Part shown: one piece after another, positions 2,881 to 49,672 of the stretch
How positions within the stretch are numbered: the first letter of the stretch is position 1
How the letters are laid out: every line of letters starts with the position of its first letter
DNA from: Minisyncoccota bacterium
Lineage (GTDB): Bacteria; Patescibacteriota; Minisyncoccia; Phycocordibacterales; UBA9973
Reading direction: 5' to 3'
Length of the DNA: 57,714 nucleotides
Assembly: GCA_035299545.1 (NCBI GenBank)
Contig: DATGWJ010000020.1
Location: 1 to 57,714, forward strand
Made by a program: the position numbers and the translations under genes
Notes under the pieces: model-generated
Told to the model about the DNA's origin: nothing
The model's database searches: none
Seen by the model: the letters and a program-made list of their open reading frames with translations, nothing else

Positions 2881-3936
2881 ATGGTAATACAAGAAAATGT
2901 GGATATTAAAGGGTATTCTACTTTTAAAATAGGTGGGAAATTTAAATATTTTACAGAAGTAGAAAATATAAATGATATAAAGGAAGTTGTTTTGTTTGGA
3001 AAAGAAAAAAATACTCCCTTATTTATATTAGGTGGTGGATCAAATATTATTTTCTCAGACGGGGATTTAAATATTTTAGCCGTAAAGATGGAAATTAAAG
3101 GTTTTGAAATAATAAAAGATACAAATGAATACACTGACATAAAAATTGGTGCGGGTGAAAATTGGGATAAGATTGTAGAGAAAACTGTTTTTATGAATTT
3201 GTGTGGGTTTGAAGCATTGTCCGCAATACCAGGCACTGTGGGGGCAACACCAATACAAAATGTCGGAGCTTATGGAGCTGAAGTTAAAGATACTATTCTA
3301 GAAGTAGAAGCTTTTAATGTAAAACCTGCCAGCCATCCTTCGCAAGGCAATGCAGGCGGGGATAATAAAATTGAAATTCTTTCAAACGAGGATTGTAAAT
3401 TTGAGTATAGAGATAGTATTTTTAAACATGAAGCAAAAGGAAAATATATTATAATTTCTGTTACTTATCGGCTCTATAAAAAACGTCCTACAATACCAGA
3501 TTACCCAGGTGTCAAAAAGTATTTTATAGAAAACAATATAAATAATCCTAGTTTGAATGATATTCGTGAAGCTATTATTTATATTCGTAATGAGAAATTA
3601 CCAAATCCTAAAGATATACCAAATGTAGGGTCATTCTTCAAGAATCCAATAGTGGATAATAGTGTCGCGAGTAGCCTGAAAAAGAAATTTTCTAACGCAA
3701 AATTCTTTAAAGTTGATGAATATTTGACGAAAATTCCAGCAGGATGGCTTATTGAAAATGCAGGATTGAAAGGGAAATCTTTCGGGAAAGTTTCTATTTA
3801 TGACAAGAATGCCTTAGTTTTGGTAAATAAAGAAAATGCCACTTGTGCAGATGTTATATCTGCTCGAGATGAAATAATAAAAATAGTAAAAGAAAAATTC
3901 GGTATTACTCTAGAGCAAGAACCAGAAATAATATAG
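2881..3936 (+). CDS. murB: UDP-N-acetylmuramate dehydrogenase
   Basis: GGGSNI, IPGTVGATPIQNVGAYG, YRDSIFK, NVGSFFKNP, LEQEP. Confidence 0.96.
   Translation: MVIQENVDIKGYSTFKIGGKFKYFTEVENINDIKEVVLFGKEKNTPLFILGGGSNIIFSDGDLNILAVKMEIKGFEIIKDTNEYTDIKIGAGENWDKIVEKTVFMNLCGFEALSAIPGTVGATPIQNVGAYGAEVKDTILEVEAFNVKPASHPSQGNAGGDNKIEILSNEDCKFEYRDSIFKHEAKGKYIIISVTYRLYKKRPTIPDYPGVKKYFIENNINNPSLNDIREAIIYIRNEKLPNPKDIPNVGSFFKNPIVDNSVASSLKKKFSNAKFFKVDEYLTKIPAGWLIENAGLKGKSFGKVSIYDKNALVLVNKENATCADVISARDEIIKIVKEKFGITLEQEPEII
3325..3360 (+). repeat. 36-nt hairpin inserted in-frame in murB (PASHPSQGNAGG)
   Basis: CCTGCC...GGCGGG outer stem with inner CCTT-CGC-AAGG; exactly 12 codons; GC-rich in an AT-rich gene. 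Confidence 0.7.
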
Positions 3937-3947
3937 ATATAATTTTG

Positions 3948-4029
3948 TGCCGGAGGAGAGAATCGAACTCTCACCCCTTGCGAGACACGATTTTGAGTCG
4001 TGCGCGTCTACCAATTCCGCCACTCCGGC
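3948..4029 (-). tRNA. tRNA-Leu(CAA)
   Basis: Cloverleaf: acceptor GCCGGAG/CTCCGGC, anticodon arm CACGA-CTCAAAA-TCGTG, long variable arm; no encoded CCA. Confidence 0.96.
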
Positions 4030-4083
4030 AAACATATGGCTAGTATACCAAAAAATAATTAAAATGCTAGAATAAGCAAATAG

Positions 4084-5220
4084 ATGCAAGATAGAACCCC
4101 GCTTTCATATATACAGATTTCAAAAGAAAACTTGATACATAATATTAAGCAGTTTCGTGATTTACTGAAGGGGCAAACGAAAATTGTTGCTGTTATAAAG
4201 GCGAATGCTTACGGACATGGAGATATAGTTATTGCCCAAATTGCTAGTCCGTTTGTGGATTATTTCCAAGTGGATGATATTGAAGAATATGAAAGAATCA
4301 AAAGTGCCACCAAGAAACCAGTTCTTATCTTGGGGTATTTAAATGAAGAAGGAATAAAAAAAGCGATAAAAACAAAGGCAATAATTTCAGCTTTTGACCT
4401 AGTGCATCTTTTAAAAATAAATCATATTGCTTTATCTTTAAAAACAAAAGCGAAAGTTCACTTGGCTATCGATTCTTATCTAGGAAGAGAAGGAGTAATG
4501 CCATCACAAGTGGAAAATATTATTAAGGAAATTAAAAATTTAAAAAATATTGAACTTGATGGAGTATATTCACATTTTGCAAATATTGAGGACACAATGA
4601 ATTCTACTCATGCGAACAGACAGATAGATACATATCATAAATGTGTGGAAATTTTTAAGAAAAATGGTTTCCCAAAAATTAATACTCACATTTCTGCTAC
4701 ATCAGGAATACTTGTTTATGAGAAGGGGAATAATTTGCACAATTTAGCACGATTGGGAATTGGCCTCTATGGTATGTGGCCAAGTGAACACTTGGGATAT
4801 TTAAATAAAAAGAAAACAAACTTAAAGCCAGTATTAAAATGGATTACGCATGTAGCTCAGGTGAAAGTTCTACCAGCAAATCATCCTGTCGGTTATGGTC
4901 TTACTTATATTACAAAAAAAGCTACAAAAATAGCTGTCATTCCACAAGGTTACTCGGACGGAGTCCCTAGATCTTTATCAAATAATGGTGAAGTGTTAAT
5001 AAAAGGTAAGAGAGCCAAAATTATAGGAAGAGTCGCAATGAATATGATTGTAGTAGATGTCTCAAATATAAAAGATGTAGTGCCAGAAGATGAAGTTGTG
5101 ATATTGGGAAAACAGGGGAAGAATGAGATTACAGCAGAGCAGATTGCAAAAGAATCAGGCACTATAAATTACGAAGCAACGACACGCATAAATGCGTTAT
5201 TACCAAGAATCGTAATGTAA
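4084..5220 (+). CDS. alr: Alanine racemase
   Basis: VIKANAYGHG PLP-lysine motif, GVYSHFA, VGYG, GRVAMN. Confidence 0.96.
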   Translation: MQDRTPLSYIQISKENLIHNIKQFRDLLKGQTKIVAVIKANAYGHGDIVIAQIASPFVDYFQVDDIEEYERIKSATKKPVLILGYLNEEGIKKAIKTKAIISAFDLVHLLKINHIALSLKTKAKVHLAIDSYLGREGVMPSQVENIIKEIKNLKNIELDGVYSHFANIEDTMNSTHANRQIDTYHKCVEIFKKNGFPKINTHISATSGILVYEKGNNLHNLARLGIGLYGMWPSEHLGYLNKKKTNLKPVLKWITHVAQVKVLPANHPVGYGLTYITKKATKIAVIPQGYSDGVPRSLSNNGEVLIKGKRAKIIGRVAMNMIVVDVSNIKDVVPEDEVVILGKQGKNEITAEQIAKESGTINYEATTRINALLPRIVM

Positions 5221-5223
5221 AAC

Positions 5224-5332
5224 AAAAAGAATGGATATATTATTTTATTCCTCCTTAACCCCATTCCTCGCGATTACGCTCGGAACGGCACGCCCCCGCC
5301 CGTCGTCATAAAACAACATATCCATTCTTTTT
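5224..5332 (-). repeat. Divergent member of the dispersed hairpin element (copy 5)
   Basis: 25-bp outer stem (G.U-compatible on minus strand); core GACGACGGGCGGGGGCGTGCCG-hairpin-TGGGGTTAAGGAGG; 109 bp. Confidence 0.7.
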
Positions 5333-5350
5333 AAATACAAGTTTTTTAGA

Positions 5351-5454
5351 AAAAGAACATAATATTGAAAATTTCTGAGTAGGTGTGGGCGCGCCGGAGC
5401 GAGCTTGCGAGCGGAGAGGGATAAGCGAGGAAATTTTTAATACTATGTTCTTTT
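5351..5454 (+). repeat. Dispersed hairpin element, copy 2
   Basis: 26-bp outer stem; core GAGTAGGTGTGGGCGCGCCGGAGCGAGCTTGCGAGCGGAGAGGGATAAGCGAGG. Confidence 0.9.
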
Positions 5455-5467
5455 CAATTTTAACTAT

Positions 5468-5689: not shown

Positions 5690-5692
5690 CTG

Positions 5693-5780: not shown

Positions 5781-6710
5781 CTATAAATCCGCTTTATTTT
5801 CCAGCAGAAATTCTTTTATCTCTTTTAGTGCTTTTAACTTATCATTTTTTTCTCTTGGATCAATCCAGATAATACTTTTATCACGTTTAAACCACGTATT
5901 TTGTCGTTTGGCGAAATGCCAAATTTCAGCATTCAATTTTTTTAGCATTTCCTCTTTTGTTATTTTTTTCTGCAAATAAAGTGCTACATATTTATATTCA
6001 AGACCAAGAGAATACATTCTTTTCCAAGATAGCCCTTTTCTATGCAATTTCTCCACTTCGTAAACCATCCCTTTCTTCATGCGAGCAAATAAACGAAGGA
6101 GAATTCTTTCTTTTAAAATTTCTGGTGGCACTTTTAGTCCAATTTTCAGAAAGGAGGACGGTTCTCCGAAATGTTGCTTAGAACTATTCTTAATAGAAGG
6201 AACTTTGCCAAGTGATTTGGCTATTTCTATGGCGCGGATTAAGCGAACCTTATTATTTTTATCAATAGTTTTTGCACGAGTAGGATCTAGCTTTTTTAAC
6301 ATTTCAAAAAGTTGTTCTGTTGTTTTTTTAGATAAAGTCTCACGAATTTTTTTATTGGGTGGGACTTCAGGGAAAGTAGTATTATTAACTATCGCATCAA
6401 TATAGAAACCAGTACCACCGCAGACGATAGGCACTTTTCCTTTCTTCGCTATTTCTCCAATTTTTTTAAAAGCTATCTTTTGGAAATCACTTACCGAGAA
6501 AACTTTTGATGGGGAAGTGACATCAAGAAGATGATGTGGAACTCCAAGCATCTCTTTCTTTGTAATTTTCCCTGTCCCTATATTCATGCCTTTATAAACC
6601 TGACGGGAATCAGCAGAAATTATTTCTCCATTTATTTGGTGGGCCACTTCAACAGCGAAGTCACTTTTTCCAATAGCTGTTTGTCCTAAAATTACTATAA
6701 CTTTACTCAT
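5781..6710 (-). CDS. miaA: tRNA dimethylallyltransferase (start moved to ATG 6710)
   Basis: GQTAIGKS P-loop, DSRQVYKGMNIGTGK, GGTGFY, AKRQNTWF; TG-T-TAATAT 7 nt before ATG 6710. Confidence 0.96.
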   Translation of the reverse strand: MSKVIVILGQTAIGKSDFAVEVAHQINGEIISADSRQVYKGMNIGTGKITKKEMLGVPHHLLDVTSPSKVFSVSDFQKIAFKKIGEIAKKGKVPIVCGGTGFYIDAIVNNTTFPEVPPNKKIRETLSKKTTEQLFEMLKKLDPTRAKTIDKNNKVRLIRAIEIAKSLGKVPSIKNSSKQHFGEPSSFLKIGLKVPPEILKERILLRLFARMKKGMVYEVEKLHRKGLSWKRMYSLGLEYKYVALYLQKKITKEEMLKKLNAEIWHFAKRQNTWFKRDKSIIWIDPREKNDKLKALKEIKEFLLENKADL

Positions 6711-6854
6711 ATTTCGCATATTAACATATTTTATGATAAGATAGTGATTACTTGTCCCGTCAGAAATTCTAGATTAAGGGGCATAAAAATAATCGTAATT
6801 TATCAGAATAAATTAAATTCTTATACAAAAAATAATATAAGAATTTCATTCGGG

Positions 6855-7657: not shown

Positions 7658-10600
7658 ATGAAATTTATACGACATAAAAAAATAATTAAGATTCTTATTT
7701 CTGTTTTTTTAATATTCTCTTCTAGAATCGTTTTTGCCGTCTGGGATGGTTTGCCTTATAACCCCGGAGAAACAATAAATCCTGAATGTTTACCATCACA
7801 AACAGATTGTGACGTTCTTCCTTCTATTACAACGGAGTCAGATCCATCTTTCTTAGATTGGTTAATTTCTCCAGTATTCACTAGCTCAGCAACGACAAGA
7901 AGTATTATCCCTGAGACAAATGATACTTATACTCTTGGTTCTTTAGATAAAGTTTGGAAAGATTTATTCGTAGGAGCGGGATCTATCTATGTTAATGGAC
8001 AAAAAGTTTTGCAAACCGACCCAAACAATAGTGTTATTGTTTCTGCTGATGATACTCAAAATTTAATTTTCCAAACAACTGGTGGAGCAAATATAGAACT
8101 TAATCCTGCTAGTGGTGGTGGGAACATTCTTTTGAAAAGTAATGTCACTCTTACTGCTGGTAAAACTATTCGAACTTCCGATTTGTCCGCTATTAATTTT
8201 TCAGATGGTATAAATGCTGGTAACATTAAAGTTTCTGGAAATATTATTTCTTCCACTGATACAAACGGAGGAATATCAATTACTCCAAATGGATTGGGTA
8301 ACACTTATGTTACAAATGGTAACTTTGGAGTAGGCACAACATCAGGACTTTCAAAACTTTCTGTGAATGGCGGTCTTCATGTTGGCGGAGATAGCGACGC
8401 GGGAGATAATAATATTTTAGCTGACGGCACCATCACTGCTATTGGGAATATTTCTGGTGCCAATCTTTCTGGGACAAACACTGGCGACAACGCTGTTAAC
8501 TCTCTTTACTCTGGGCTTGCAACATCCAAACAAGATACACTAGTCTCAGGAACAAATATTAAAACAATAAATGGGAATACAGTTTTGGGAAGTGGAGATA
8601 TGTCTATAGGAACTTTCAATCTCCCTGCTTTAACAACTGGCTCTGTTCTTTTCTCTGATGGTTCTACAATTGCGCAAGACAATGCAAATCTTTTCTGGGA
8701 TGATGCAAATAATAGGTTAGGGATAGGGACAACGACTCCAGAATATCGATTACAAATTTCTGATGGAGCAAATGCTTTCTTGTCAGTAGATAGCACAACT
8801 TCACGAGTAAAAGTTGGAAAAAGTTCAGTTACAGCACCAACTAAAACTTTAGATGTTGCTGGAAATATGAATTTTAATGCTGTAGTTGCCCCAACTCTTG
8901 CACAAGTCACAAGTATTGGAGTGGCAGATGGTGGAGCAGGTAGTATTCCAGCAGGAACATATTACTATGGTGTAGAATTTTATACTTCTGATGGAGATAC
9001 AGGGGCAACATACTCCGCTGCTTCTTCTCCAACTATTACCTTATCTGGTCCTTCTAGAGTTAATTTAACTAATATCCCAACATCGACTGATCCTCGTGTT
9101 ATTGGAAGAAAAATTTACAGAAGCCAAGCTGGAACAGTGGGGGATTATTATTTTAGATATAAGATTGCTACAATTGCCGATAATACAACAACAACTTACC
9201 AAGATAATACTACGACTTATGATAGTAGTGATTGGGAGTATAATAAACAAAATACAACAGCAGGTCTTATTTATTACAACACTGGAAATGGTGTTCTTAC
9301 TAAGATGATGCAACTCACTTCCTATGTTACAGCAGCTGGTTCTAATGCATTAGGAAACTTAACTAGAGGGACCACCACGACAGCTTTTGGTTCTGGTGCT
9401 TTAGCGAATGTTACAACAGGAGATTCAAATATGGCTTTTGGTCATTCTGCTGGATTTAATGTTACAACAGGAGTAGCAAATGATTATTTTGGTTATGCTT
9501 CTGGTCTAGGAAACCAAACTGGAACAGGTAATAGTGCCTTTGGTGATAGTTCGCTACGTAATAATACAAATGCATCTTTTTCTGGAAACTCAGCATTTGG
9601 AGATGCTTCTTTATATGCTTTAGCCTCAGGAAATAATTATAACGTTGGAGTAGGATATTATGCTGGTAATGGAGCACAAGCAACGGGAGGAGTTTATCTT
9701 GGATACCAAGCTGGATATCAATCTGGTGGAGTTGGAACAGTAGGAGGTTACAACATAGTTCTAGGTGCTAATAGTGGAACTCTATTGGGTGCTGGGCTTA
9801 GAAATGTGTTAATTGGATATGATGTTGAATTAGCTACTCCTGCTACTAGTGATCAGTTAAATATCGGAAATATAATTTATGGAACAGGTCTAGGAACTGG
9901 TTCAACTCCATCTGCTACAGGAAAGGTTGGAATTGGCACTTCAACTCCAGGGCAGTTGTTGCATGTTAAAGATACAACAAGCGTAGCTACTCCTATGGTT
10001 ATGTTAGAGGGGTACAATCATGTTTTAGGATTAAAAGGACAAACACCATATGCTGAATATTTTAATCCATCTGGAACACGTCTTGGTTGGTTTGGTTATG
10101 GTATAAATGCTAATGATTTATATTTTTCTAATGATGTAGCTGGTAAGCCAATATATTTTGCCACAGATGGTTACACGAATCCTAGAATGACAATTCTAGG
10201 AACTAGCGGTAATGTTGGTATTGGAACAATAACCCCAGGAGAAAAATTAGAAGTAAGTGGTAGTAGTATTGGAGGAATTGTAAAAACAATAATTAGAAAT
10301 ACAGACCTTACAGATTCAGCTAGTGGAGCTGGAATTGTTCTTATCCCAACTACTGCTGGATGGGGTCCTGCGTTATATGCAACTAGAGGTGGATCAGGAG
10401 CTTTGTATTTTGGAACGACAAGTGCCGCAGGTGGTTCTGCTTTTGATTCAGATAAAGTAAGAATGGTTATTTCAAATATGGGGAATGTAGGTATTGGAAC
10501 AACAAGTCCAGTTTCTAATTTACAAGTTTCTCAATCAACAACAGGAGTTGGAACTGTCTCAAACTCTGCGGGTGGAACTACAGTGACCGGAGTTGGAACA

Positions 10601-19069: not shown

Positions 19070-19177
19070 AAAACAGGGGGTATTCATAAAAATTTCTTCG
19101 CTTATCCCTACCGAATCCTGCCGGATTCGGCGCGCGCCCACACCTACTCAGAAATTTTCATGAATACCTCCTGTTTT
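19070..19177 (-). repeat. Dispersed hairpin element, copy 3 (inverted)
   Basis: 28-bp outer stem; minus-strand core GAGTAGGTGTGGGCGCGCG-CCGAATCC-GGCA-GGATTCGG-TAGGGATAAGCGAAG. Confidence 0.9.
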
Positions 19178-30836: not shown

Positions 30837-30966
30837 TGTGAGAGTAAACCAACTGCTTGGCTTGCGTGCGGGAATTGAAGACCTTTTCCATGTGAGCTTG
30901 CGAATGGAAAAGGTGTACTGAACCTGTAAGGTTCGATAAGCGTACTCGCGGTCTGGTCGAGGGCAC
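30837..30966 (+). repeat. Structured tRNA-trailing element ending in a copy of the tRNA-Arg 3' end
   Basis: 11-bp IR 30881-30891/30904-30914; GAACCT/AGGTTC hairpin; CGAGGGCAC direct repeat (30795-30803 = 30958-30966). Confidence 0.65.
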
Positions 30967-36614: not shown

Positions 36615-37748
36615 TTAAAGTTGTAAGTTCCCGTTTGCCTTTAAAGGTAAGCGGGACTTTTTATTTTTGATTCCGAAGTATCCAGCGATAGCTATCATAA
36701 GCGCATTATCACCAGTTAATTCGCGAGAAGGGAAGTGAACTTTTGTTTTTAGTTTGTTTTTCTTAAGAGCTTTTGTCATAATCTCTTGAAGGTATTTATT
36801 TGCGGAAACACCACCTCCAACAATAAGAGTTTTTATTTTATATTCTTTGATTGCTTTTATTGTTTTATGCACTAATGTTTCAACTACCGCATCTTCAAAT
36901 TCACGAGCAATCATTTGTTTTATTCCAACATTCTGTAGAATGTTGGAATGTTTTTTTTCTAAATCACGAATTAAATAAAGTACAGCAGTTTTCAATCCAG
37001 AAAAAGAAAAATCATAATCCTTTGAGTGAATCATAGGACGAGGAAGAATAATAGAAGGCAGGAAATCGCTGACTTCTCTAAGGACCGTCCTTGAAGAAGC
37101 CCCAAAGGACGGTCCTTTAGCGATTTCCTGCCTCTCAATACTAGCCAACCTTGATACTTCAGGTCCCCCAGGGTAAGGAAGCCCAAGCATTCGAGCAACC
37201 TTGTCGAAAGCCTCTCCGCTTGCGTCATCTCTTGTTTGACCTATCTTTTTATACTTCATCCAATCTTTTATAAGGATAAGTTCTGTATGCCCTCCAGAGA
37301 CTAAGAGTGAAAGTATCGGAAATATTTTTTTATTTGTATCTATTATGAAAGTTTTTCCTTTCTTTGGAAAAATAGAAAAGATATGCCCCTCCATATGGTT
37401 CACTGGTACAATTGGGATTTTATATTTATCGTTAATTTCTTTTGCAAAAACTATTCCAGTCCAAAGTGCTGGCTCAAGTCCGGGACCTGTCGTCACAGCT
37501 ATGGCATCTATGTTTTCTATTTTTAATTTTGCTTGTTTGAGAACTTTTTTAAAAATGATTGGCAAATTTTTTATATGTTCTCTTTTTGCAAGAGCAGGGA
37601 AAACACCCCCATATTCTTTGTGGATATCTATCTGGGAAGATATTTCATTACCCAGTATTTTAAATTGTGTCTTTTTGCCTTGCTTTACAGCATTTATTAT
37701 AGCTATTGCTGTCTCATCACAAGAGGTCTCAATGGCCAATATTTTCAT
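36615..37748 (-). CDS. tsaD: tRNA N6-threonylcarbamoyltransferase TsaD (start moved to ATG 37748)
   Basis: LAIETSCDETA, HMEGH, LVSGGHT, DDASGEAFDKVAR, SFSGLKTA, GGGVSAN, TGDNALMI. Confidence 0.96.
   Translation of the reverse strand: MKILAIETSCDETAIAIINAVKQGKKTQFKILGNEISSQIDIHKEYGGVFPALAKREHIKNLPIIFKKVLKQAKLKIENIDAIAVTTGPGLEPALWTGIVFAKEINDKYKIPIVPVNHMEGHIFSIFPKKGKTFIIDTNKKIFPILSLLVSGGHTELILIKDWMKYKKIGQTRDDASGEAFDKVARMLGLPYPGGPEVSRLASIERQEIAKGPSFGASSRTVLREVSDFLPSIILPRPMIHSKDYDFSFSGLKTAVLYLIRDLEKKHSNILQNVGIKQMIAREFEDAVVETLVHKTIKAIKEYKIKTLIVGGGVSANKYLQEIMTKALKKNKLKTKVHFPSRELTGDNALMIAIAGYFGIKNKKSRLPLKANGNLQL
36922..36949. repeat. Palindrome inside tsaD (HSNILQNVGI)
   Basis: ATTCCAACATTCT-GT-AGAATGTTGGAAT; same family as the intergenic 41455-41488 palindrome. 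Confidence 0.8.
37056..37133. repeat. 78-nt (26-codon) hairpin inside tsaD
   Basis: 15-bp perfect outer IR with two AAGGACNGTCCTT units in inverted orientation. Confidence 0.85.
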
Positions 37749-37804
37749 GAAATTACTATACCACAAGGGTTTTTATTTGACTATTTTTATGATATCCTTT
37801 AAGT

Positions 37805-38382: not shown

Positions 38383-39777
38383 ATGAAAATTTTAAGCGAA
38401 ATATTAGAAGATGTAAATGTTATAGAGAGTCATGGAAACTTGGGATCCAAGGTATCTTCTTTGTCGCTTAACTCAAAAGAGATTGAACTAAATTCTCTAT
38501 TTATAGCACTCGTGGGGAATGTTGTAGATGGGCATATGTTTATAGATGAAGTTATAGAAAGTGGTGCTACAACCATAATCCATGAGAAAGATTTAAATGA
38601 ATACAAGAATGGTATTACTTATGTAAAAGTTGCAGATACTCACAACGCTTTAGGTATTATCGCCAATAACTTCTATGGGGAACCATCTCGCAATTTAAAA
38701 TTAATTGGAGTTACCGGTACAAACGGCAAGACAACAACAGCGACGCTTCTGCATCAACTTTTCCGAGATCTTGGGTATAAAGCTGGGATGATAGGAACAG
38801 TAGTGAACAAGGTGAATGATAAATCTTATGATGCAGTAAGGACAACTCCGGATTCTATATCCTTAAATAAACTTATGGCGGAAATGGTGAATGACGGATG
38901 CAAGTATTGTTTTATGGAGGTAAGTTCTCATGCTGTATCAGAGAAGAGAATAGATGGACTTACATTCTTTGGTGGAATATTCACCAATCTTACTCTGGAT
39001 CATTTGGATTATCATAAGACCTTAGATAATTATTGCAATGCAAAGAAAGCATTTTTCGATATGTTGCCTTCTTCTGGTTTTGCTATTGCAAATATAGATG
39101 ACGCTCGAGGAGAATATATGCTCTCTACAACAAAAGCAAACAAATACACACTAAGCTTAAAGAAGAAAGCAGATTTTAATGAGAGACTAAAAACAAAACT
39201 AATTGGAGAATTTAATGCTTATAATATTCTGGGTATTTATGCTGTCGCAGTGTTACTAGGGCAAGATAAAGAAAAAGTGAAAGAAATAATTGAAAATCTT
39301 GAACCAGTCGCTGGGCGTTTCCAATATATAAAGTCACAAAATGGAATTACTGGAATAGTGGACTATGCGCATACTCCAGATGCTCTAGAGAACGTACTTA
39401 AAACAGTAAATGATTTGAAAGGGAAAGGGAAGCTTATTGCAATTGTTGGTTGTGGCGGTGATAGAGATAAAAGCAAAAGACCAATAATGGCAAAAATTGG
39501 ATACGATATGAGTGACATACTTATTCTTACTTCCGACAACCCTCGCACAGAAAGACCAGAAGATATCCTAAATGATATGCAAAAAGGTTTACCTCTAGAA
39601 GGTGATAAGGTTGAAATAATAGTTGATAGACATTTAGCTATACAAAAAGCCTGCTCGCTCGCGCTCGCAGGCGACTTCATCCTGGTTGCTGGAAAAGGCC
39701 ACGAAACATATCAAGAAGTAAATGGACTCAAAACTCACTTTGATGATATGGAAGAATTAAGGAGATATTTAAAATAA
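38383..39777 (+). CDS. murE: UDP-MurNAc-Ala-Glu:meso-DAP ligase (likely start ATG 38383)
   Basis: GVTGTNGKTT, MEVSSHA, NLTLDHLDYH, VDYAHTPD, SDNPR (mDAP-type motif), AGKGHE. Confidence 0.96.
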   Translation: MKILSEILEDVNVIESHGNLGSKVSSLSLNSKEIELNSLFIALVGNVVDGHMFIDEVIESGATTIIHEKDLNEYKNGITYVKVADTHNALGIIANNFYGEPSRNLKLIGVTGTNGKTTTATLLHQLFRDLGYKAGMIGTVVNKVNDKSYDAVRTTPDSISLNKLMAEMVNDGCKYCFMEVSSHAVSEKRIDGLTFFGGIFTNLTLDHLDYHKTLDNYCNAKKAFFDMLPSSGFAIANIDDARGEYMLSTTKANKYTLSLKKKADFNERLKTKLIGEFNAYNILGIYAVAVLLGQDKEKVKEIIENLEPVAGRFQYIKSQNGITGIVDYAHTPDALENVLKTVNDLKGKGKLIAIVGCGGDRDKSKRPIMAKIGYDMSDILILTSDNPRTERPEDILNDMQKGLPLEGDKVEIIVDRHLAIQKACSLALAGDFILVAGKGHETYQEVNGLKTHFDDMEELRRYLK

Positions 39778-39778: not shown

Positions 39779-41449
39779 ATGCATTCAGAAACAAGACAAT
39801 GTAATAAATGTAAAGTAGAATTTATTTTAGATCAAGATGAATTGTCTTTCTATGAGAAAATGAAAGTACCTGTTCCCAATGTTTGCCCAGATTGTCGTTT
39901 TGAGATGAGGGCGATATGGAGGAATGAGATGATATTGTATACAGGTCAAACTTGTGGTTTATGCGGTAAAAATATTATCTCGAGATATAATCCAAAACTA
40001 AAATACAATGTTTATTGTTGGAAATGTTATTTTTCTGATAAGTGGAATCCAGATGAATATTTTATAGATTATGATTTATCAAAATATTTTGTTGATCAAT
40101 TTGGAGAATTGTTAAACAAAACACCCAAACTCTCTTTACATATAAGTGAAGTTGAAGGTCTAATAGTGAATAGTGATTATATAAATAGTGCTGGGGGGTG
40201 TAAGAATTGTTACTTTGTTTTTAATACGAGTATTTGCCAAGAATCAATATATTCAAAAGGAATAAAATTATGCACTGAAGTTTCCGATATTTACTACGCT
40301 TTAAATCTTGATCTGTCATATGAATGTGTAAATGTTAATAAATCATCTGGAATTGTTTTTGGTAGTAATTCTGTTGGCTGTGTGGATTCATTTTTTATCT
40401 CAAATTGTAGTGGTCTAACAAATTGTTTTGGTTGTGTAAATTTAAGAAATAAAAGTTATTGTTGGTTTAATGAACAACTTACCCATGATGAATATAAACA
40501 AAAGTTGGAAGAAATACTTGGAAGTTATTCTGGTATAGAGAAAGCTAAAAAAGATTTTGAAAATTTTTGTTTAAAATATCCACACAGGGAAAATAATAAT
40601 CAAAAAACAGTTGATTCAACTGGGGACTATCTTTTTGAGTGTAAAAATGTAAAGAATTCGTTTGAAACAACTAATGGTGAAGATTGCAAGTATGTTTTTT
40701 CTTGTAAGGGACCTAAAGATTCTATAGATGTTACTGGTTGGGCTGTGTCATCTCAACGTCTTTTAAACGCAGTAAGTAGTGCATATTCTTCAAATTTAAT
40801 AGCAGGATTAGGTGTTGAAAATTCTCAAAATGTTTTATATGGTTTTTATATTACTAATTGTGAAGATTGTATCGGATGTGATTCAATAAGTAATAAAAAA
40901 TTCTTTATTCTAAATAAACAATACACAAAAAAAGATTATGAGGAGTTAAAGGAACATATAATTAAAGAACTTACAAAAGATGGAATATATGGATTAATGA
41001 TACCAACAGAACTTTCTCCTTTTGCTTATAATGAAACTATAGCTCAAGATAATATGCCTCTAACCAAAGAAGAAGCTCTTGCTCAAGGTTTTAGATGGGA
41101 AGATGATATTCAGATAACAAAAGGAAGAGAAACATTACAGCCAGAAGAGATTCCTGACCATATAAAAGATGTGCAGGATTCTATAACAAGTAAAATACTA
41201 AAGTGCATTTCTTGCGAAAGAAATTATAAAATTATAGAACAGGAACTACTTTTCTATAGAAAAATGAATTTACCAATTCCTCACAAATGTTTCTATTGTC
41301 GTCATCATGATCGCATAAAAAGGCGAGGCCCATACAAATTCTGGGACCGAAAGTGTGACCACTGTGGTAAAGATATAAAAACAAATTATTCCCCAGATAG
41401 AAAAGAAATAATTTACTGTGAACACTGTTACCAGCAAGAAGTTTATTAA
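39779..41449 (+). CDS. Cys-rich zinc-ribbon/beta-repeat protein of unknown function, paralog 1
   Basis: CNKC, CPDCR, CGLC, CWKC, FGCVNLRNKSYC, C-term CDHC...YCEHCYQQEVY. Confidence 0.85.
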   Translation: MHSETRQCNKCKVEFILDQDELSFYEKMKVPVPNVCPDCRFEMRAIWRNEMILYTGQTCGLCGKNIISRYNPKLKYNVYCWKCYFSDKWNPDEYFIDYDLSKYFVDQFGELLNKTPKLSLHISEVEGLIVNSDYINSAGGCKNCYFVFNTSICQESIYSKGIKLCTEVSDIYYALNLDLSYECVNVNKSSGIVFGSNSVGCVDSFFISNCSGLTNCFGCVNLRNKSYCWFNEQLTHDEYKQKLEEILGSYSGIEKAKKDFENFCLKYPHRENNNQKTVDSTGDYLFECKNVKNSFETTNGEDCKYVFSCKGPKDSIDVTGWAVSSQRLLNAVSSAYSSNLIAGLGVENSQNVLYGFYITNCEDCIGCDSISNKKFFILNKQYTKKDYEELKEHIIKELTKDGIYGLMIPTELSPFAYNETIAQDNMPLTKEEALAQGFRWEDDIQITKGRETLQPEEIPDHIKDVQDSITSKILKCISCERNYKIIEQELLFYRKMNLPIPHKCFYCRHHDRIKRRGPYKFWDRKCDHCGKDIKTNYSPDRKEIIYCEHCYQQEVY

Positions 41450-41454: not shown

Positions 41455-41488
41455 AACATTCCAACATTCTCGAGAATGTTGGAATGTT
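41455..41488. repeat. Perfect 34-bp spacerless palindrome between the Cys-rich paralogs
   Basis: AACATTCCAACATTCTC|GAGAATGTTGGAATGTT. Confidence 0.9.
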
Positions 41489-41498: not shown

Positions 41499-43208
41499 AT
41501 GGAACATAAGGAAGAAAAAAGAATATGTCAGAATTGCAAAAATGAGTTCACTATAGAGCCAGAGGATTTTAATTTTTATGAAAAGATAAAAGTACCAGCA
41601 CCGACTTGGTGTCCGGAATGCAGGCTAATAAGACGCCTTTCATTTAATAATGTATTTTCAATATATAAGCGTAATTGCGGTAAATGTAATGAGTCTATCA
41701 TTTCGATGTATTCACCAGATAAAAAAACAATTGTCTACTGCAATCCTTGTTGGTGGGCAGACAGTTGGGACGGGAGAGAATATGCGATGGATTATAATCC
41801 CAGTAGACCTTTCTTTGAACAGCTTAAGGAGTTAACTGAGAAGACGCCGTATCAGGCAACTAATAGTGGGTATAAAACTCTTATTAATTGTAAATATAAT
41901 AATGGTCTAGGATATTGCAAAGACTGCTATATGATATTCTGGGCAGATTACTGTGAGAATGTTTTTTACTCTGCTATCTTAAATACTTTAAAACATAGCT
42001 CTGATTGTATTCGTGGATATTTTTCTGAACTTTGTTATGAGTCAGTAGGGTTTAGTAGGTGCTATAGAACATTTTTCTCGGACGAATGCGATGATTGCAT
42101 CGATGTTTGGTTTTCTCGAAATTGTTACAATTGCACAAACTGTATTGGATGTGTAAATTTGCGAGGCGAATCAAATTGTATTTTTAATGTCAAATATACA
42201 AAAGATGAATACAAAGAAAAGCTTAAAGAGCTCAATCTTGAATCATGGAAAAGTATTCACAATCTAGAAAAAGAAGCACATAAATTTTGGCTCACGAAAC
42301 CATTCCGAGCATATCATGGACACTCTTTAAATTTAAATGTTACTGGTGACTATGTATATGAATCAAAAAATTCAAAAGAAGGGTATATTTTAAACGGAGC
42401 AGAAGATTGCAAATGGTGCCAATTTATAACAGTAAAGTCGATAAAAGACTGTTATGATTACTCTGGATGGGGAAATGGTGCGGAACTTATATATGAAGTG
42501 TCTGTGGCTGGAGAGGGCGCAAGCAATGTACGATTCTCAGACCAGTGTTGGCCAAACGTTATGAATGTAGAATATTCTATATATGCTAATTCTTGTAAAA
42601 ATTGTTTTGGATGTGTGAATCTTAAAAATAAGGAATATTGTATTTTGAATAAGCAATACACAAAAGAAGAATATGAAAAGCTAAAACAAATAATTATTGA
42701 AAATATAAAAAGAAACCCTTATATAGACAAAAGAGGAAGAACCTGGACATATGGAGAGTTCTTACCATTAGAATTATCACCCTTTGCTTATAATGAAACC
42801 TTAGCAATACAATTTTTCCCAAAAACAAAAGAAGAAATTTTAGAAAAAGGATTTGATTGGTATGAGAAAAAAGATAATCAATATACTATAACAATGAAAG
42901 CGGAAAATCTTCCAGATACTCTTTCTGAAACAGACGATTCTGTTCTGGATGAAATTATTTCTTGTGCGACATGTGGTAAGGCTTATAAATTTGTTTCTGA
43001 GGAACTTAACCTGATGCGAAAGCTCGGAATGCCACTACCTCATTCTTGTTTTAATTGTAGACAACAACTTCGTTTCTCTCATACCAATTTACCTAAGCTT
43101 TATAATAGAAATTGCGATAAATGTGGTATAAAGGTTAGAACCTCATATGCCCCAGATAGACCAGAAGTAATATATTGCGAGAATTGTTATCAGCAGGAAT
43201 TTATTTAA
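41499..43208 (+). CDS. Cys-rich zinc-ribbon/beta-repeat protein of unknown function, paralog 2
   Basis: CQNC, CPECR, CGKC, CNPC, FGCVNLKNKEYC, C-term CDKC...YCENCYQQEFI. Confidence 0.85.
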   Translation: MEHKEEKRICQNCKNEFTIEPEDFNFYEKIKVPAPTWCPECRLIRRLSFNNVFSIYKRNCGKCNESIISMYSPDKKTIVYCNPCWWADSWDGREYAMDYNPSRPFFEQLKELTEKTPYQATNSGYKTLINCKYNNGLGYCKDCYMIFWADYCENVFYSAILNTLKHSSDCIRGYFSELCYESVGFSRCYRTFFSDECDDCIDVWFSRNCYNCTNCIGCVNLRGESNCIFNVKYTKDEYKEKLKELNLESWKSIHNLEKEAHKFWLTKPFRAYHGHSLNLNVTGDYVYESKNSKEGYILNGAEDCKWCQFITVKSIKDCYDYSGWGNGAELIYEVSVAGEGASNVRFSDQCWPNVMNVEYSIYANSCKNCFGCVNLKNKEYCILNKQYTKEEYEKLKQIIIENIKRNPYIDKRGRTWTYGEFLPLELSPFAYNETLAIQFFPKTKEEILEKGFDWYEKKDNQYTITMKAENLPDTLSETDDSVLDEIISCATCGKAYKFVSEELNLMRKLGMPLPHSCFNCRQQLRFSHTNLPKLYNRNCDKCGIKVRTSYAPDRPEVIYCENCYQQEFI

Positions 43209-43823: not shown

Positions 43824-45203
43824 ATGCAGAATTATAAACAACAATTTAAGGGCAAGCGTATTACAATAATGGGGTTAGGGCTACTTGGACGTGGTCTTGG
43901 ATATACTAAATTCTTGGCAGAATGTGGGGCTGATTTAGTAGTGACGGATTTAAAAACAGAAGAACAACTTACAACCTCAGTGAAAGCACTAAACAAGTTT
44001 AAGAATATTAAATTTGTTTTAGGAGAACATCGGTTAGAAGATTTTAAAAACAAAGATATGATAGTGAAATCCGCCGGAGTTCCTCTTGATTCCATTTATA
44101 TAAATGAAGCAAGGAAGAATAATATTCCAATTGAAATGGATGTATCCTTATTTGCCAAATGTGCACCTCTAGTTATGATTATCGGAGTTACAGGTACAAG
44201 AGGGAAGTCAATGACTACAGCTTTATCTTACGAAATTTTAAAAGCTAACGAAAAGTTACTAAAAAGGAAAGTTTATATTGGTGGAAATGTGCGAGGTGTA
44301 GCTACTCTTCCTCTTCTTAAAAAAGTGAAGAAAGGGGACATTCTTGTCTGCGAACTTGATTCTTGGCAGTTGCAAGGATTTGGTGAAGCAAACCTGCCTG
44401 ACCGGCAGGCAGGAATTTCTCCACATATTTCAGTATTCACAACCTTCATGCCAGACCATATGAATTACTACAAAAATAGTATGGAAAGATATTTTGAAGA
44501 CAAGGCAAATATTTTTAAATACCAAAATAAAGATGATGTGTTAATTATTCTTCCTGAAATGAAGAAATTAATCAAGAAAGAGGAAGTGAAAGGTAAATTA
44601 GTAATTGCTGATGGGAAAAATGTCAGTGATTGGAAATTCAATGTAAAGGGAGATCACCATAGGAACAATATGGCTTGTGCTGTAGAAGTGGCGAAAGTGC
44701 TCGGTATCCCAGAATCAAAGATAAAGAAAGTAATTTCTAAATTCAAAGACCTAGAGGGACGCCTTCAATATTTAAAGACATACAAAGGTATTAAAATCTA
44801 TAATGATAATAATGCCACAACCCCCGAGGCCACAATCGCCGGTCTTGAAGCATTATCTAAAGATTTCGCAAGGACAGTCCTTGCGAAAAATAAGGTTATT
44901 TTGATTTGTGGAGGGGCGGATAAGGGGCTACCTTTGGATAACTTTGTTAAAATGGTAAATACACACTGTAAAGCTGTGATAATGATTCCAGGAACAGGTA
45001 CAGAGAGATTATTGAAGAGTTATGAACTCAAAGTTAAGAATGAGGTGGGGAAAGAATTAAATGATATAGTGAAGCGAGCAGTAAAAGAATCAAAAAAAGG
45101 GGATACTATTCTCTTTTCTCCAGCTTTCGCATCTTTTGGAATGTTTAATAATGAATACGAAAGAAATGATTTATTTATTAAGATAATTAAAAAGTTGAAA
45201 TAA
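43824..45203 (+). CDS. murD: UDP-MurNAc-Ala:D-Glu ligase
   Basis: GLGLLGRG, GVTGTRGKS, ELDSWQL, PDHMNYY, YNDNNAT, ICGGADK, SPAFASF. Confidence 0.95.
   Translation: MQNYKQQFKGKRITIMGLGLLGRGLGYTKFLAECGADLVVTDLKTEEQLTTSVKALNKFKNIKFVLGEHRLEDFKNKDMIVKSAGVPLDSIYINEARKNNIPIEMDVSLFAKCAPLVMIIGVTGTRGKSMTTALSYEILKANEKLLKRKVYIGGNVRGVATLPLLKKVKKGDILVCELDSWQLQGFGEANLPDRQAGISPHISVFTTFMPDHMNYYKNSMERYFEDKANIFKYQNKDDVLIILPEMKKLIKKEEVKGKLVIADGKNVSDWKFNVKGDHHRNNMACAVEVAKVLGIPESKIKKVISKFKDLEGRLQYLKTYKGIKIYNDNNATTPEATIAGLEALSKDFARTVLAKNKVILICGGADKGLPLDNFVKMVNTHCKAVIMIPGTGTERLLKSYELKVKNEVGKELNDIVKRAVKESKKGDTILFSPAFASFGMFNNEYERNDLFIKIIKKLK
44393..44413. repeat. 21-nt palindrome in-frame in murD (LPDRQAG)
   Basis: CCTGCCTG-ACCGG-CAGGCAGG; precise removal leaves GEA-K-ISPH. 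Confidence 0.8.
44864..44888. repeat. 25-nt palindrome in murD (FARTVLAK)
   Basis: TTTCGCAAGGAC-A-GTCCTTGCGAAA, identical to intergenic 49648-49672. Confidence 0.9.
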
Positions 45204-45448: not shown

Positions 45449-46792
45449 ATGCAAGATATAGATTTATCAAAAATTAAAAATATACATTTTATCGGAATCG
45501 GGGGGATTGGGATTTCGGCTATTGCTCGTATGATGTTCCACTATGGGAAGACAGTAACGGGGCAAGATATGAACGAAGGCGCAAATATAGATGAACTTCG
45601 TAAGATAGGTCTGTATATTATTACTGGGCAATCCTTTGATTTCATTCCGATAGGGACTGAGCTCATTGTTTATACAATTGCGATAGATACTTATGACCCA
45701 GAGCTTGCAAGTAGAATTAAAAAACAAACAAAGGTACCTGTGCTTTCATATCCGCAAATGCTTGAAATTATAAGTCGCGATAAATACACCGTAGCTGTCT
45801 CAGGTACACACGGCAAGACGACGACTACAGCGATGATTGCACATATATTATCCGATGCGAAGAAAGATCCGACTGTTATAGTTGGAAGTTTATTGATTCC
45901 TCCAAATGCCACCGTTGGACAAGCTGAAAGTAATTTCATTGCTGGCCGAAGTGAATACTTGGTAGTGGAAGCATGTGAGTACAGAAGGTCATTCTTAAAT
46001 ATTCACCCAAAAATTGTAGTGATTACAAATATTGATAATGAACACTTAGATTATTATAAAGACATTAAAGATATTAAAAGCGCTTTTCGGGAATTAGTAA
46101 CAAAAGTTCCTAAAGATGGATACGTGGTATGTAACCCTAACGATGAAAACATAAGTGATGTAGTGAAAGATATTCCAGCAAAAGTTGTAAGTTGGCAAGA
46201 TTACTATGTTGAAGATTTAAAATTAAGGATTCCTGGAAATCATAACAAGAAAAATGCTGCCGCAGCTATGGCTCTTGCTGCTATCCTCGGCGTTGACGTA
46301 GATTCATCAAAGAAGGCACTTCTGGAATTCCGCGGTACTTGGAAGCGCTTTGAATTTAAAGGTAAATTAAAACAAGGCACAATTGTTTACGATGATTACG
46401 CACATCATCCTACGGAAATAGTGGCAACACTGCAGGGCTTTCGGGAGCTATACCCAAAGAGTGAAGGATGGAAATTGACAGTTGTTTTTCAACCTCATTT
46501 GTTTTCCCGAACGAAACTACTATTGAATGATTTTGCAAAAAGTTTCGGAGAGGGAGATCAAGTGATAGTTCTGCCTATCTACTATGCTCGCGAAGAGAAT
46601 GACGGAAGTATTTCTTCTGATATTTTAGCTACAGAAATAAATAAAAATACAAATAATGCAAAATCAATCCATACATTCGAAGAAGCAGAGAAATATCTTT
46701 CAAGTGAAATATCTAATATGGGGCCAAAAGATATCATCATAACTATGGGTGCTGGTGAGGCATCAAAAGTAGGTGACTTCTTGCTTAAATAA
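45449..46792 (+). CDS. murC: UDP-N-acetylmuramate:L-alanine ligase
   Basis: HFIGIGGIGISAIA, VSGTHGKTTT, VVEACEY, DDYAHHPTE, FQPH, MGAG. Confidence 0.96.
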   Translation: MQDIDLSKIKNIHFIGIGGIGISAIARMMFHYGKTVTGQDMNEGANIDELRKIGLYIITGQSFDFIPIGTELIVYTIAIDTYDPELASRIKKQTKVPVLSYPQMLEIISRDKYTVAVSGTHGKTTTTAMIAHILSDAKKDPTVIVGSLLIPPNATVGQAESNFIAGRSEYLVVEACEYRRSFLNIHPKIVVITNIDNEHLDYYKDIKDIKSAFRELVTKVPKDGYVVCNPNDENISDVVKDIPAKVVSWQDYYVEDLKLRIPGNHNKKNAAAAMALAAILGVDVDSSKKALLEFRGTWKRFEFKGKLKQGTIVYDDYAHHPTEIVATLQGFRELYPKSEGWKLTVVFQPHLFSRTKLLLNDFAKSFGEGDQVIVLPIYYAREENDGSISSDILATEINKNTNNAKSIHTFEEAEKYLSSEISNMGPKDIIITMGAGEASKVGDFLLK

Positions 46793-47641: not shown

Positions 47642-47684
47642 TAGCTCATTTGTAAACATAAGCTTTTTAAAGTATACTTTGATA

Positions 47685-47948
47685 ATGAAAAGGGCTGTTT
47701 TTGACGTTATTTTGTTTATTTCTGTCTTCACTTTTCCTTGGTGGATTAGTGTTTTACTCTTATTGGTTGGGATGTTTATTTTTAAAAACTTTTATGAATT
47801 TATCATTGCTAACGTCATAGTTTATTCTCTTCATGCAGTACCAGGGGACAGGCTTATCACATCACCGATATTTTATTCTCTCTTGGTTGTAATTATTTAC
47901 ATTGTTATTCAAATTATTAGAGATAATATTATTTTATATAAAAAATAA
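47685..47948 (+). CDS. Small membrane protein (likely start ATG 47685)
   Basis: 3 TM segments; TATACT 6 nt before the ATG; directly upstream of PBP2. Confidence 0.6.
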   Translation: MKRAVFDVILFISVFTFPWWISVLLLLVGMFIFKNFYEFIIANVIVYSLHAVPGDRLITSPIFYSLLVVIIYIVIQIIRDNIILYKK

Positions 47949-47949
47949 A

Positions 47950-49644
47950 ATGAGATTCCATGTCGGTCACAATCGAATAAAAAGGAATATTGATCCAGAT
48001 GAAATTTTTCTAGATTCAAAGAATTTACCAAATTTCAATACTCAGCAATTTGAAGGTAGACTAGAAAAACCAATTCCTAAAACTTCCATAATTAATATAG
48101 GTTTATTTTTTATTGTGGTAGCAGTTATTTTTATTATTCAGACCGTCAATTTACAAGTTGTAAAAGGTGAAGCATATTTTAAAAAAAGTGAAAATAATAC
48201 TCTAGAAAAGAAACCTATTTTTGCTGACAGAGGGCTTATATATGATCGTAATGGAGTCCTTCTTTCTTGGAATACATGGGACAAGGAAGATATAAATAAA
48301 TTGTCTTCTCCAAAAAGAACATATATAGATGAGCCAGGTTTCGGGCTTCTTTTAGGATATGTCAGTGCTCCAGCGAAAGATTCATCGGGGTTTTATTGGC
48401 AAGATAAATTTATTGGCAAAGACGGGGTAGAAAGTTATTTTAATGATAGGCTTACTGGAGAGAATGGAGAACGCATTACTGAGACAGACGTGAAAGGTGA
48501 AGTTCAATCCGAGAATATTGTCTTATTACCTAAAGCAGGGGAAGATCTTACACTTTCTATTGATGCGAAAATTCAAGCGAAAATGTATAAATCAATTTCC
48601 GAAATGGCGAAGAATGTCGGATTCCAAGGGGGGGCAGGAGCAATTATGGATATACATACAGGGGAGATATTGGCGCTTACTAGTTATCCGGAATACAATG
48701 GGAATATTTTATCGGAAGGTGAAGATAGTAAAACTATAAAAGGATATTTCTCTGATAAACGCAAAGTCTTTCTTAATAGAACTGTCTCAGGGCTTTATAG
48801 TCCAGGTTCTATTGTAAAACCATTCTTAGGATACGGAGCATTGGTTGAGAATGTCATTTCTCCAGTGAAAACAATTTTTTCTAACGGTTCTATTTCTATT
48901 CCTAATCCATATTTTCCAGATAAGAAATCTGTGTTCAAAGATCACGGTTCATTCGGCTATGTGGATATGAAGAAGGCTATTGCTGTTTCTTCCGACGTTT
49001 ACTTTTATGAAATTGGTGGAGGATTTGAAAGTCAGAAAGGATTAGGAATTGCAAACATAGATAAATATGCAAAAATTTTCGGAATCGGAGAAAAGACTGG
49101 AATTAATTTAAATGGAGAAAAGGATGGAACTATACCTACTCCTGAATGGAAAGCGAAAACATTCAAAGGTGATATATGGAGAATCGGAGATACTTATAAC
49201 ACTTCTATCGGTCAGTATGGTTTCCAAGTTACACCTCTCCAAATGGTCCGAGCTGTGGCTGGTATTGCAAGCATGGGAACATTTTATACTCCGCATATTA
49301 CACACAATGACAGTAATTTTGAGTCACAAAAGGAAGTTGTCGATGTAGATGAAAATATGATGAAGGTAATACATGAAGGAATGCGAATGGCAGTCACAGA
49401 AGGGACAGCCACAGCTTTGCATTTACCAAACATAGAAGTGGCAGCAAAGTCTGGTACGGCTCAGGTGGGAGTGGGGAATACAAATACCAACTCTTGGATT
49501 GTTGGATTTTTCCCTTATGATAATCCGAAATATTCTTTCGCTCTTGTTATGGAGCGTGGACCCAAAGAGGCCTCTGGAAATGCTACTCGCGTAATGAGTG
49601 AAGTCGTGGATTATATGAGTGTGTATACAGATTATTTAAAATAA
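47950..49644 (+). CDS. mrdA: Penicillin-binding protein 2 (class B; likely start ATG 47950)
   Basis: RGLIYDRNG, GKDGVE, SPGSIVKP (SxxK), SSDVYFY, KSGTAQ. Confidence 0.9.
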   Translation: MRFHVGHNRIKRNIDPDEIFLDSKNLPNFNTQQFEGRLEKPIPKTSIINIGLFFIVVAVIFIIQTVNLQVVKGEAYFKKSENNTLEKKPIFADRGLIYDRNGVLLSWNTWDKEDINKLSSPKRTYIDEPGFGLLLGYVSAPAKDSSGFYWQDKFIGKDGVESYFNDRLTGENGERITETDVKGEVQSENIVLLPKAGEDLTLSIDAKIQAKMYKSISEMAKNVGFQGGAGAIMDIHTGEILALTSYPEYNGNILSEGEDSKTIKGYFSDKRKVFLNRTVSGLYSPGSIVKPFLGYGALVENVISPVKTIFSNGSISIPNPYFPDKKSVFKDHGSFGYVDMKKAIAVSSDVYFYEIGGGFESQKGLGIANIDKYAKIFGIGEKTGINLNGEKDGTIPTPEWKAKTFKGDIWRIGDTYNTSIGQYGFQVTPLQMVRAVAGIASMGTFYTPHITHNDSNFESQKEVVDVDENMMKVIHEGMRMAVTEGTATALHLPNIEVAAKSGTAQVGVGNTNTNSWIVGFFPYDNPKYSFALVMERGPKEASGNATRVMSEVVDYMSVYTDYLK

Positions 49645-49647
49645 TTC

Positions 49648-49672
49648 TTTCGCAAGGACAGTCCTTGCGAAA
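49648..49672. repeat. Intergenic copy of the 25-nt palindrome
   Basis: TTTCGCAAGGACAGTCCTTGCGAAA, 3 nt after the mrdA stop. Confidence 0.9.

Follow-up and report, generated by a model that had tools for sequence, protein, structure and literature searches.

Short GC-rich hairpins lie in frame within several conserved enzyme genes, among them murB, murD and tsaD, in a 57,714-nucleotide stretch of DNA from a Minisyncoccota bacterium (hereafter the window). These intragenic palindromes are probably copies, in filtered form in coding DNA, of dispersed hairpin families of a Paceibacterota genome that resemble repetitive extragenic palindromic (REP) elements; for one of the families, F1, a protein resembling the REP-associated tyrosine transposases (RAYTs) is the likely motor. 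Under this account hairpin copies would be pasted into coding DNA, in some cases over a loop-coding stretch, and the survivors would be those that are in frame, free of stop codons and located in a tolerant surface loop. For F1 the movement would likely depend on the single RAYT-like Y1/HUH transposase of the genome, acting on a folded single-stranded DNA hairpin. Surviving inserts are most likely just translated, giving short, flexible stretches with many Gly, Ser, Pro, Thr, Ala and Arg residues, and would be neutral for the host enzyme. As predicted from sequence, the inserts add loops of 7-26 amino acids without loss of frame, and every copy is in frame and stop-free.

The window is contig C20 within a 746-kb assembly of 33 contigs (G000) with 34% GC. 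Long open reading frames occupy about 86-90% of it, and the closest MurD homologs carry the labels Candidatus Nomurabacteria or Paceibacterota, which belong to the Candidate Phyla Radiation (CPR)/Patescibacteria. Host proteins and their DNA were aligned to orthologs from up to 40 related genomes. Elements were folded as single-stranded DNA and z-scores were calculated against shuffled sequences (200 shuffles for murB), while copy-number expectations were taken from thirty second-order Markov simulations. Reversed-pattern controls were searched across 25-41 genomes. AlphaFold models were generated with ortholog alignments as input and had a mean predicted local distance difference test score (pLDDT) of 85. 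For all examined elements except the murB insert, fold z-scores ranged from -5 to -9.

Hairpin elements in murD, tsaD and murB

The murD gene (43824-45203, + strand, assigned by Pfam, as are murB, alr, miaA, tsaD, murC and the penicillin-binding protein gene below) contains two elements, which a first-pass annotation of the window had described as palindromes of 21 and 25 nt; comparison with orthologs confirmed both as gains of 21 and 24 nt. Site 1 (44393-44413, + strand) is a copy of the F2 family, CCTGCCTGACCGGCAGGCAGG, that encodes (N)LPDRQAG. It adds exactly 21 nt relative to orthologs, in which the empty site reads GAAGCAAA/AATTTC (GCAAA/AATTT, the slash marking the junction), and it forms an 8-bp stem with a z-score of -5.4. 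This copy shares its frame and orientation with five other coding F2 copies. Site 2 (44864-44888, + strand) is the F1 25-mer TTTCGCAAGGACAGTCCTTGCGAAA, which encodes FARTVLAK, folds with a z-score of -7.7 and results in a net gain of 24 nt. Most orthologs have no insert here, and at the same codon four genomes (G004, G003, G012 and G013) each bear a different hairpin. In the MurD model, only the two inserts, at residues 192-195 and 351-353, have pLDDT below 50. A 25-mer identical to the murD F1 copy is also found between genes at 49648-49672 (z -6.7), directly after the stop codon of a penicillin-binding protein gene (47902-49644, + strand).

Two elements are found in tsaD (36615-37766, - strand). 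The longer is a 78-nt compound hairpin (37056-37133, - strand) encoding the peptide RQEIAKGPSFGASSRTVLREVSDFLP, in which 15-nt outer arms, AGGCAGGAAATCGCT and AGCGATTTCCTGCCT, surround a REPIN-like doublet of F1 cores (AAGGACCGTCCTT, 12 nt, AAGGACGGTCCTT). It folds at -31 kcal/mol with a z-score of -9.1. The site is a hypervariable loop that holds nothing in G015, G021 and G022 and other GC-rich inserts in G023/G003, G008, G016/G019, G017 and G024; the G008 insert is a member of one of the approximately 100-nt families found in G000. Within this element lie residues 220-232, the sole internal segment of the TsaD model with pLDDT below 50. The shorter element is a copy of the F3 family, a 28-nt palindrome (~36920-36953, - strand; DNA AACATTCCAACATTCTACAGAATGTTGGAAT, peptide KHSNILQNVGIK) whose arms are identical to those of six other F3 copies and whose hairpin, on the + strand, is followed by T8. 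Its intergenic twin at 41455-41488 shares 94% identity with the tsaD 32-mer, has a z-score of -8.0 and is terminator-like, with an A-run, a 15-bp stem and a T-run. Thus, both pairs of coding and intergenic twins noted in the first pass were recovered.

In murB (2881-3936, + strand) a GC-rich insert of 36 nt (3325-3360, + strand; DNA CCTGCCAGCCATCCTTCGCAAGGCAATGCAGGCGGG, peptide PASHPSQGNAGG) forms an imperfect palindrome with CCTGC...GCAGG ends and contains the octamer TCGCAAGG, which is common to the F1 arm. Among 12 orthologs the segment is unique to this gene, the 11 others having no counterpart, and it is a clean addition of 36 nt or 12 amino acids: the protein of the window reads VK-PASHPSQGNAGG-DNKIE where the 11 orthologs read IKRG-NISTI. 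Target-site duplications were looked for at murD site 1 and at the murB insert, and neither site has one.

A separate observation concerns the 3' end of tsaD, which is shortened relative to orthologs. On the + strand of 36619-36666, inside the last tsaD codons, there is a strong hairpin followed by TTTTTATTTTT, with the appearance of an intrinsic terminator for the AIR-synthase-like gene (35485-36597), which is convergent.

Repeat families, host genes and relatives

F1 is defined as TTTCGCAAGGACNGTCCTTGCGAAA, with the core AAGGACNGTCCTT and the full 25-mer form TTTCGCAAGGAC[A/T]GTCCTTGCGAAA; its termini are TTTCGC.../...GCGAAA and its flanks are variable. The core occurs at 20 genomic sites, some of them single hairpins and others paired in inverted doublets. 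Five doublets are present, with spacers of 10-12 nt, and because the central bases are complementary (C/G or T/A) in all five, the two cores of a doublet are inverted relative to each other. F2 is CCTGCCTACCGGACAGGCAGG, a CCTGCC-loop-GGCAGG hairpin of 19-21 nt found at 10 genomic sites, and F3 is AACATTCCAACATTCT-nn-AGAATGTTGGAATGTT, about 34 nt long and present in 7 genomic copies, the arms of which account for 14 genomic occurrences. The over-representation of the motifs predicted in the first pass was borne out, with 20, 10 and 14 occurrences for F1, F2 and F3 versus 0, 0 and 0.1 in the simulations and only 0-1 matches for the reversed patterns. Inspection of the sequences finds no stop codon in any of the six frames of F1 and F3, or in five of those of F2.

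Seven of the ten F2 copies are coding and F1 doublets are mostly coding, whereas F3 and single F1 copies are mostly intergenic. G000 contains 20 F1 sites, compared with 0-4 across 15 congeners and 0 across nine genomes of the order that belong to other genera. The distribution of F2 and F3 among species is patchy, yet identical 21- and 26-mers are shared by genomes whose proteins are only about 70-75% identical. Three further families, of which two measure about 100 nt and one about 55 nt, are nearly confined to intergenic DNA. Composite hairpins of the ~100-nt type are found in the window at 2719-2827, 5351-5454, 19070-19177 and 51686-51797, each with a near-invariant GC-rich core, GAGTAGGTGTGGGCGCGCC...AGGGATAAGCGA, within AT-rich stems that are locus-specific but self-complementary. 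About 20 copies are present in the genome, one of which is in frame within uvrA (C22:13697-13772). These composite hairpins have no Rfam match; both at the gathering threshold and at E <= 1, Rfam searches of the window yielded tRNAs only.

The full coding copies of F2 are found in the genes for GatB, TatD, ArgRS, MurD, a methyltransferase and aminopeptidase N (PepN). All six begin at codon position 3 in one orientation and read xLPTGQAG or xLP(D/G)RQAG, and the copy in gatB is a clean addition of 7 amino acids relative to Thermotoga GatB (PDB 3al0). Length is associated with location, as all seven 21-nt variants are coding while none of the three 19-nt variants is in a credible gene (Fisher P = 0.008). 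In 10 of 10 cases F2 copies point the same way when measured against local gene direction and GC skew. Since the intergenic copies share this orientation, the bias is not merely driven by the peptide. A target-site consensus was sought at six F2 sites and none was found beyond a purine-purine dinucleotide before the element; there is no conserved tetranucleotide.

Additional coding copies are hosted by the genes for MurB, TsaD, DapF, a class V aminotransferase, TGT, phosphoglucomutase, UvrA (two copies), UvrB and UvrC. ArgRS carries a possible half F1 core besides its F2 copy, a class II aminoacyl-tRNA synthetase has another possible half core, and KsgA has an unclassified pair of GC-rich hairpins. 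In uvrB, two nearly identical hairpin inserts of 52 nt occupy two sites (C22:9891-9942 and 10278-10329) and encode the peptide GGKRSDLKGAQG(Q/E)SLRS. Together, uvrABC hold 5 of the ~24 coding copies on about 1% of the coding DNA (Poisson P about 4e-6, a post hoc calculation), and the same observation was made for intragenic REPs in other phyla by Di Nocera et al. 2013 (PMC3733652). The clustering in peptidoglycan and tRNA-modification genes suggested by the first-pass annotation does not hold genome-wide, where hosts span aminoacyl-tRNA synthetases, GatB, DNA repair, rRNA and tRNA modification and metabolism; it appeared because one window alone was viewed. The elements proposed for miaA (5781-6719, - strand) and murC (45449-46792, + strand) were not upheld either, as neither gene holds a family copy or an outlier hairpin and the Pfam match of miaA has no extra residues. 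GC-rich stretches of leuS and of a murE/F-like ligase (39650-39675) were also considered as inserts and rejected, as there is no change in length relative to the Pfam profiles, and LAPEH in leuS and the Ala-rich helix of murC are ordinary conserved motifs, as are the GC-rich stretches of miaA.

Related genomes contain comparable insertions. One murD gene of G013 carries five hairpin inserts, and the peptide PEGK(S/N)TSNGAG is common to MurD of G013 and MurB of G010. Among 120 MurD orthologs with 70-80% identity, length ranges from 429 to 494 amino acids (mostly 441-494) and many insert peptides recur. Three lineages, which a tree does not place as sisters, have an F2-like LP.RQAG insert at one and the same MurD site. 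Judged from these alignments, the hairpin-insert phenomenon is genus-wide. Insertion at a hairpin tip was considered for MurD orthologs with 13- and 21-amino-acid versions of one insert and was rejected; the second insertion lies beside the first hairpin, outside its loop.

The RAYT-like gene and competing explanations

The single RAYT-like Y1/HUH gene of the genome (G000, C2:25781-26470; Pfam Y1_Tnp) encodes a protein of 223-229 amino acids and holds the sole Pfam Y1_Tnp match in the genome (C2:25970-26242, 36 bits versus a cut-off of 23). In its family an H-F-H motif and two Tyr residues are invariant. Homologs in Parcubacteria number in the thousands at 60-75% identity, and one of these is named 'REP element-mobilizing transposase RayT' in its source. 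F1 hairpins abut the gene on both sides, the upstream one beside a TATAAT box and with an extra half-copy 50 nt farther up. The resulting module of ~90 nt at the 5' side (C2:25690-25783) is made up of half an F1 and, after a spacer, a complete F1 whose stem is extended, and it recurs at two intergenic positions, C2:30947-31027 and C24:3159-3249, both without a transposase gene. In G011 two F1 cores flank the RAYT-like gene, and in G015 its ortholog is bracketed by CGATGCGCAAGGACGGTCCTTGCGCATCG-type hairpins. Because F1 brackets the gene here and in two other species, we interpret F1 as a REP-like element with a cognate enzyme. Seven other RAYT-like loci were examined in G004 and G013. Three of these (two in G004 and one in G013) have a distinct hairpin of their own on both sides, and the remaining four have a strong hairpin on one side or none. 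At locus L088 (G004:C2:4700-6500) the RAYT-like gene has a cognate hairpin, CAGCCACCAGTC-G-GACTGGTGGCTG, upstream, inside the coding sequence and downstream. An enzyme acting on single-stranded DNA hairpins would fit both the precise insertion of the murD F2 copy without target duplication and the strand bias of F2.

Several observations weigh against this account. No movement was observed, the nearest relative being only about 80% identical in MurD, and translation of the inserts is assumed. The RAYT-like protein scores 40.6 bits against the NCBIfam family REP_Tyr_transpos, for which the cut-off is 80, and phmmer and profile searches with it found no solved structure. F2 and F3 do not adjoin a RAYT-like gene in any genome checked (25 genomes for F2). 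Classical REPs end on one side in a conserved tetranucleotide, GTAG or CGTC (PMC3733652), whereas F1 has no such end tag; the main F2 variant has GTAG internally, where loop and arm meet, perhaps by coincidence. The murB insert folds weakly (z -0.5, with 58 of 200 shuffles equal to it) and is a singleton, as related copies were sought in 41 genomes and none was found. Of the 36-nt hairpin reported for murB, the insertion stands, with weak folding and no family found for it. The F3 segment of tsaD is equal in length to that of close congeners (HSNILQNVG versus NPNILENIN, in the ortholog peptide NPNILENINIK), is missing only from more distant orthologs and is modeled with high confidence. Therefore, what the first pass had said of inserts in tsaD holds for the 78-nt element, and the 28-nt palindrome is present without a change in length; it is also the only copy for which orthologs have the same peptide without a palindrome, the outcome that the first pass had named as refuting its reading. 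In dapF, an F1 copy has taken the place of a stretch coding for a loop, the net gain being just 3 nt. Lastly, a 31-nt perfect palindrome in tsaC/Sua5 (19406-19436, + strand; CAGGCCAAAATTTTG-C-CAAAATTTTGGCCTG), the right arm of which encodes the universal FWPG motif, is in a segment equal in length to that of orthologs.

The cases without a length change are those expected if nothing had been inserted and the palindromes had formed in place, by replication template switching (quasi-palindrome correction) or gene conversion, perhaps for a useful RNA or DNA structure. The tsaC hairpin spans the FWPG codons, and G006, G009, G003 and G005 retain it with compensatory changes (TTTTG/CAAAA to TTCC/GGAA); it may be a conserved intragenic structure. 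In addition to the F3 copy of tsaD and the overwritten loop of dapF, the tsaD 78-mer has 15-nt outer arms in partial overlap with ortholog-alignable sequence. An origin in place fails, however, on the clean insertions of exact hairpins, on 21-25-mers that recur unchanged at unlinked loci and in further species, and on the linkage of F1 to a transposase-like gene, and as a general explanation we consider it unlikely. Alternatively, the elements may be mobile while their mover is not the RAYT-like protein but another structure-specific nuclease, with stand-alone GIY-YIG and DUF559 proteins as candidates, or host repair that captures hairpin oligonucleotides. In agreement with this, F2 and F3 are not found next to RAYT-like genes, F2 abundance among genomes is unrelated to RAYT-like gene number, and some events are replacements rather than clean insertions. 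Yet three species show F1 linked to the RAYT-like gene. A stand-alone GIY-YIG gene was sought in G000 and the only match is UvrC, despite the 10 F2 copies, while G015 has four small GIY-YIG genes and zero F2. We regard a different mover as possible but doubtful.

The inserts could also be selected functional modules, serving as new loops, pause sites, mRNA stabilizers or internal terminators against antisense transcription. Such a role might be expected from the one heptapeptide frame shared by 6 of 6 F2 copies, from the identical murD and tsaD loops that are struck repeatedly across species, from the tsaD F3 hairpin with its T8, which resembles the intergenic terminator-like copies, and from the covariation in the conserved tsaC hairpin. 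Nevertheless, the inserts are lineage-specific and missing from the closest orthologs of the same enzymes, one loop holds different sequences in different species, the inserts are predicted to be disordered by the models, and the hosts are functionally unrelated. Selection for function is, in our estimation, distinctly improbable. Finally, GC-rich codons for Gly, Ala, Pro and Arg could create short palindromes by chance or composition, and some flagged stretches (leuS LAPEH and the murC Ala-rich helix) are indeed ordinary motifs while the murB insert folds no better than shuffled sequence. Against this stand the excess over the simulated counts, the near-absence of reversed-pattern matches and the exact agreement of indels with hairpins; chance is refuted for F1, F2 and F3, and we attach negligible probability to it overall. 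Dispersal of REP-like hairpins, with the RAYT-like protein as the probable motor of F1, is thus the reading that we favor.

A tentative extension of this reading is that the REP-like families have adopted a 'coding lifestyle' in genomes that are nearly 90% coding. The families would be shaped to be translatable (a multiple of three in length, without stops in five or six frames and coding for flexible loops), their single-stranded hairpins would insert strand-specifically, and copies would persist preferentially in genes for essential enzymes because only a precise in-frame deletion removes them there. If so, the 21-nt F2 unit encoding LPTGQAG would be the smallest known mobile protein-coding module, and the recurrent hits on murD and tsaD codons, along with the uvrABC excess, would indicate a target preference beyond tolerance.

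Known systems, implications and other features of the window

The parallel with Rickettsia palindromic elements drawn in the first-pass annotation is a good one. RPE-1 to RPE-8 (Ogata et al. 2000, 2002) are summarized by Di Nocera et al. 2013 (PMC3733652). Like these and the Wolbachia palindromic elements, the hairpins described here are palindromic repeats found between genes and in frame within housekeeping genes, to which they add peptides; several short families are present in one reduced genome, and one gene can hold multiple inserts. RPE-1 is roughly 100-150 bp long, while the elements here measure 21-25 nt when single and 36-78 nt when compound, and their host belongs to an unrelated phylum (Paceibacterota, CPR). 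Additionally, one family here has a cognate transposase-like gene. Size and host set the elements apart from RPEs.

The REP/REPIN-RAYT systems (PMC3733652) offer another comparison, as they consist of short, imperfect palindromes of 20-40 nt repeated genome-wide. As in a REPtron, F1, and only F1, brackets a single-copy Y1/HUH gene, and as in REPINs, F1 cores are found in inverted pairs able to form one longer hairpin. Unlike REPs, the families here have copy numbers of tens rather than hundreds, and F2 and the F1 doublets are mostly coding where REPs are predominantly extragenic. F2 and F3 have no RAYT partner, and the RAYT-like protein is a distant member that passes the Pfam cut-off but not that of NCBIfam. 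The single-strand transposition of the insertion sequences (IS) IS200/IS605 is alike in having a hairpin as the recognized structure, no target-site duplication and biased orientation (F2, 10 of 10). In contrast to those IS, the elements here lack a transposase and are shorter than any IS by a factor of ten, and F2 sites have no conserved target tetranucleotide. The insertions at murD site 1 and in murB also differ from those of MITEs (miniature transposable elements with terminal inverted repeats) in the absence of a target-site duplication.

The compact, very AT-rich mitochondrial genome of yeast has GC clusters and 'byp' elements, which are short GC-rich mobile hairpins that invade its protein genes; the byp elements disrupt the reading frame, and the ribosome bypasses them. 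The elements of the window are likewise short GC-rich hairpins in protein genes, but the copies are in frame and stop-free, so ordinary read-through is the simplest reading. We searched the full-text literature for work combining RPEs or palindromic in-frame insertion with Patescibacteria or CPR and found nothing relevant. While in-frame hairpins are known from Rickettsia and others, they have apparently not been described for CPR or at such small size.

In-frame palindromic invasion of essential genes, so far mainly associated with Rickettsia, Wolbachia and a few REP-rich bacteria, is thus extended to CPR, where one family is linked to a RAYT-like gene with thousands of Parcubacteria homologs. 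It accounts for much of the length variation in core CPR enzymes, with consequences in these lineages for annotation, for phylogenies built on alignments and for the prediction of structures. In MurB, MurD, TsaD and GatB the inserts naturally mark loops that are tolerant, and the 21-nt F2 unit, strict in orientation and frame, is a compact system for studying the movement of hairpin DNA and its filtering.

Other features of the window were noted in passing. The alr gene (4084-5220, + strand) follows murB. A structured repeat of ~90 nt (30864-30953) lies directly after a tRNA-Arg gene and has about 8 genomic copies, several of which adjoin tRNA genes. In leuS (20836-23679), a NUDIX domain (residues 388-506) is inserted after the editing domain. 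The gene at 1193-2704 (- strand) encodes a MurA-like enolpyruvyl transferase of the EPSP_synthase fold fused to an N-terminal HTH_3 DNA-binding domain. Two adjacent paralogs of about 560 amino acids (39779-41449 and 41499-43208), which have no Pfam match, share repeated NCFGCVNL-type Cys motifs encoded within direct repeats D2 and D8.

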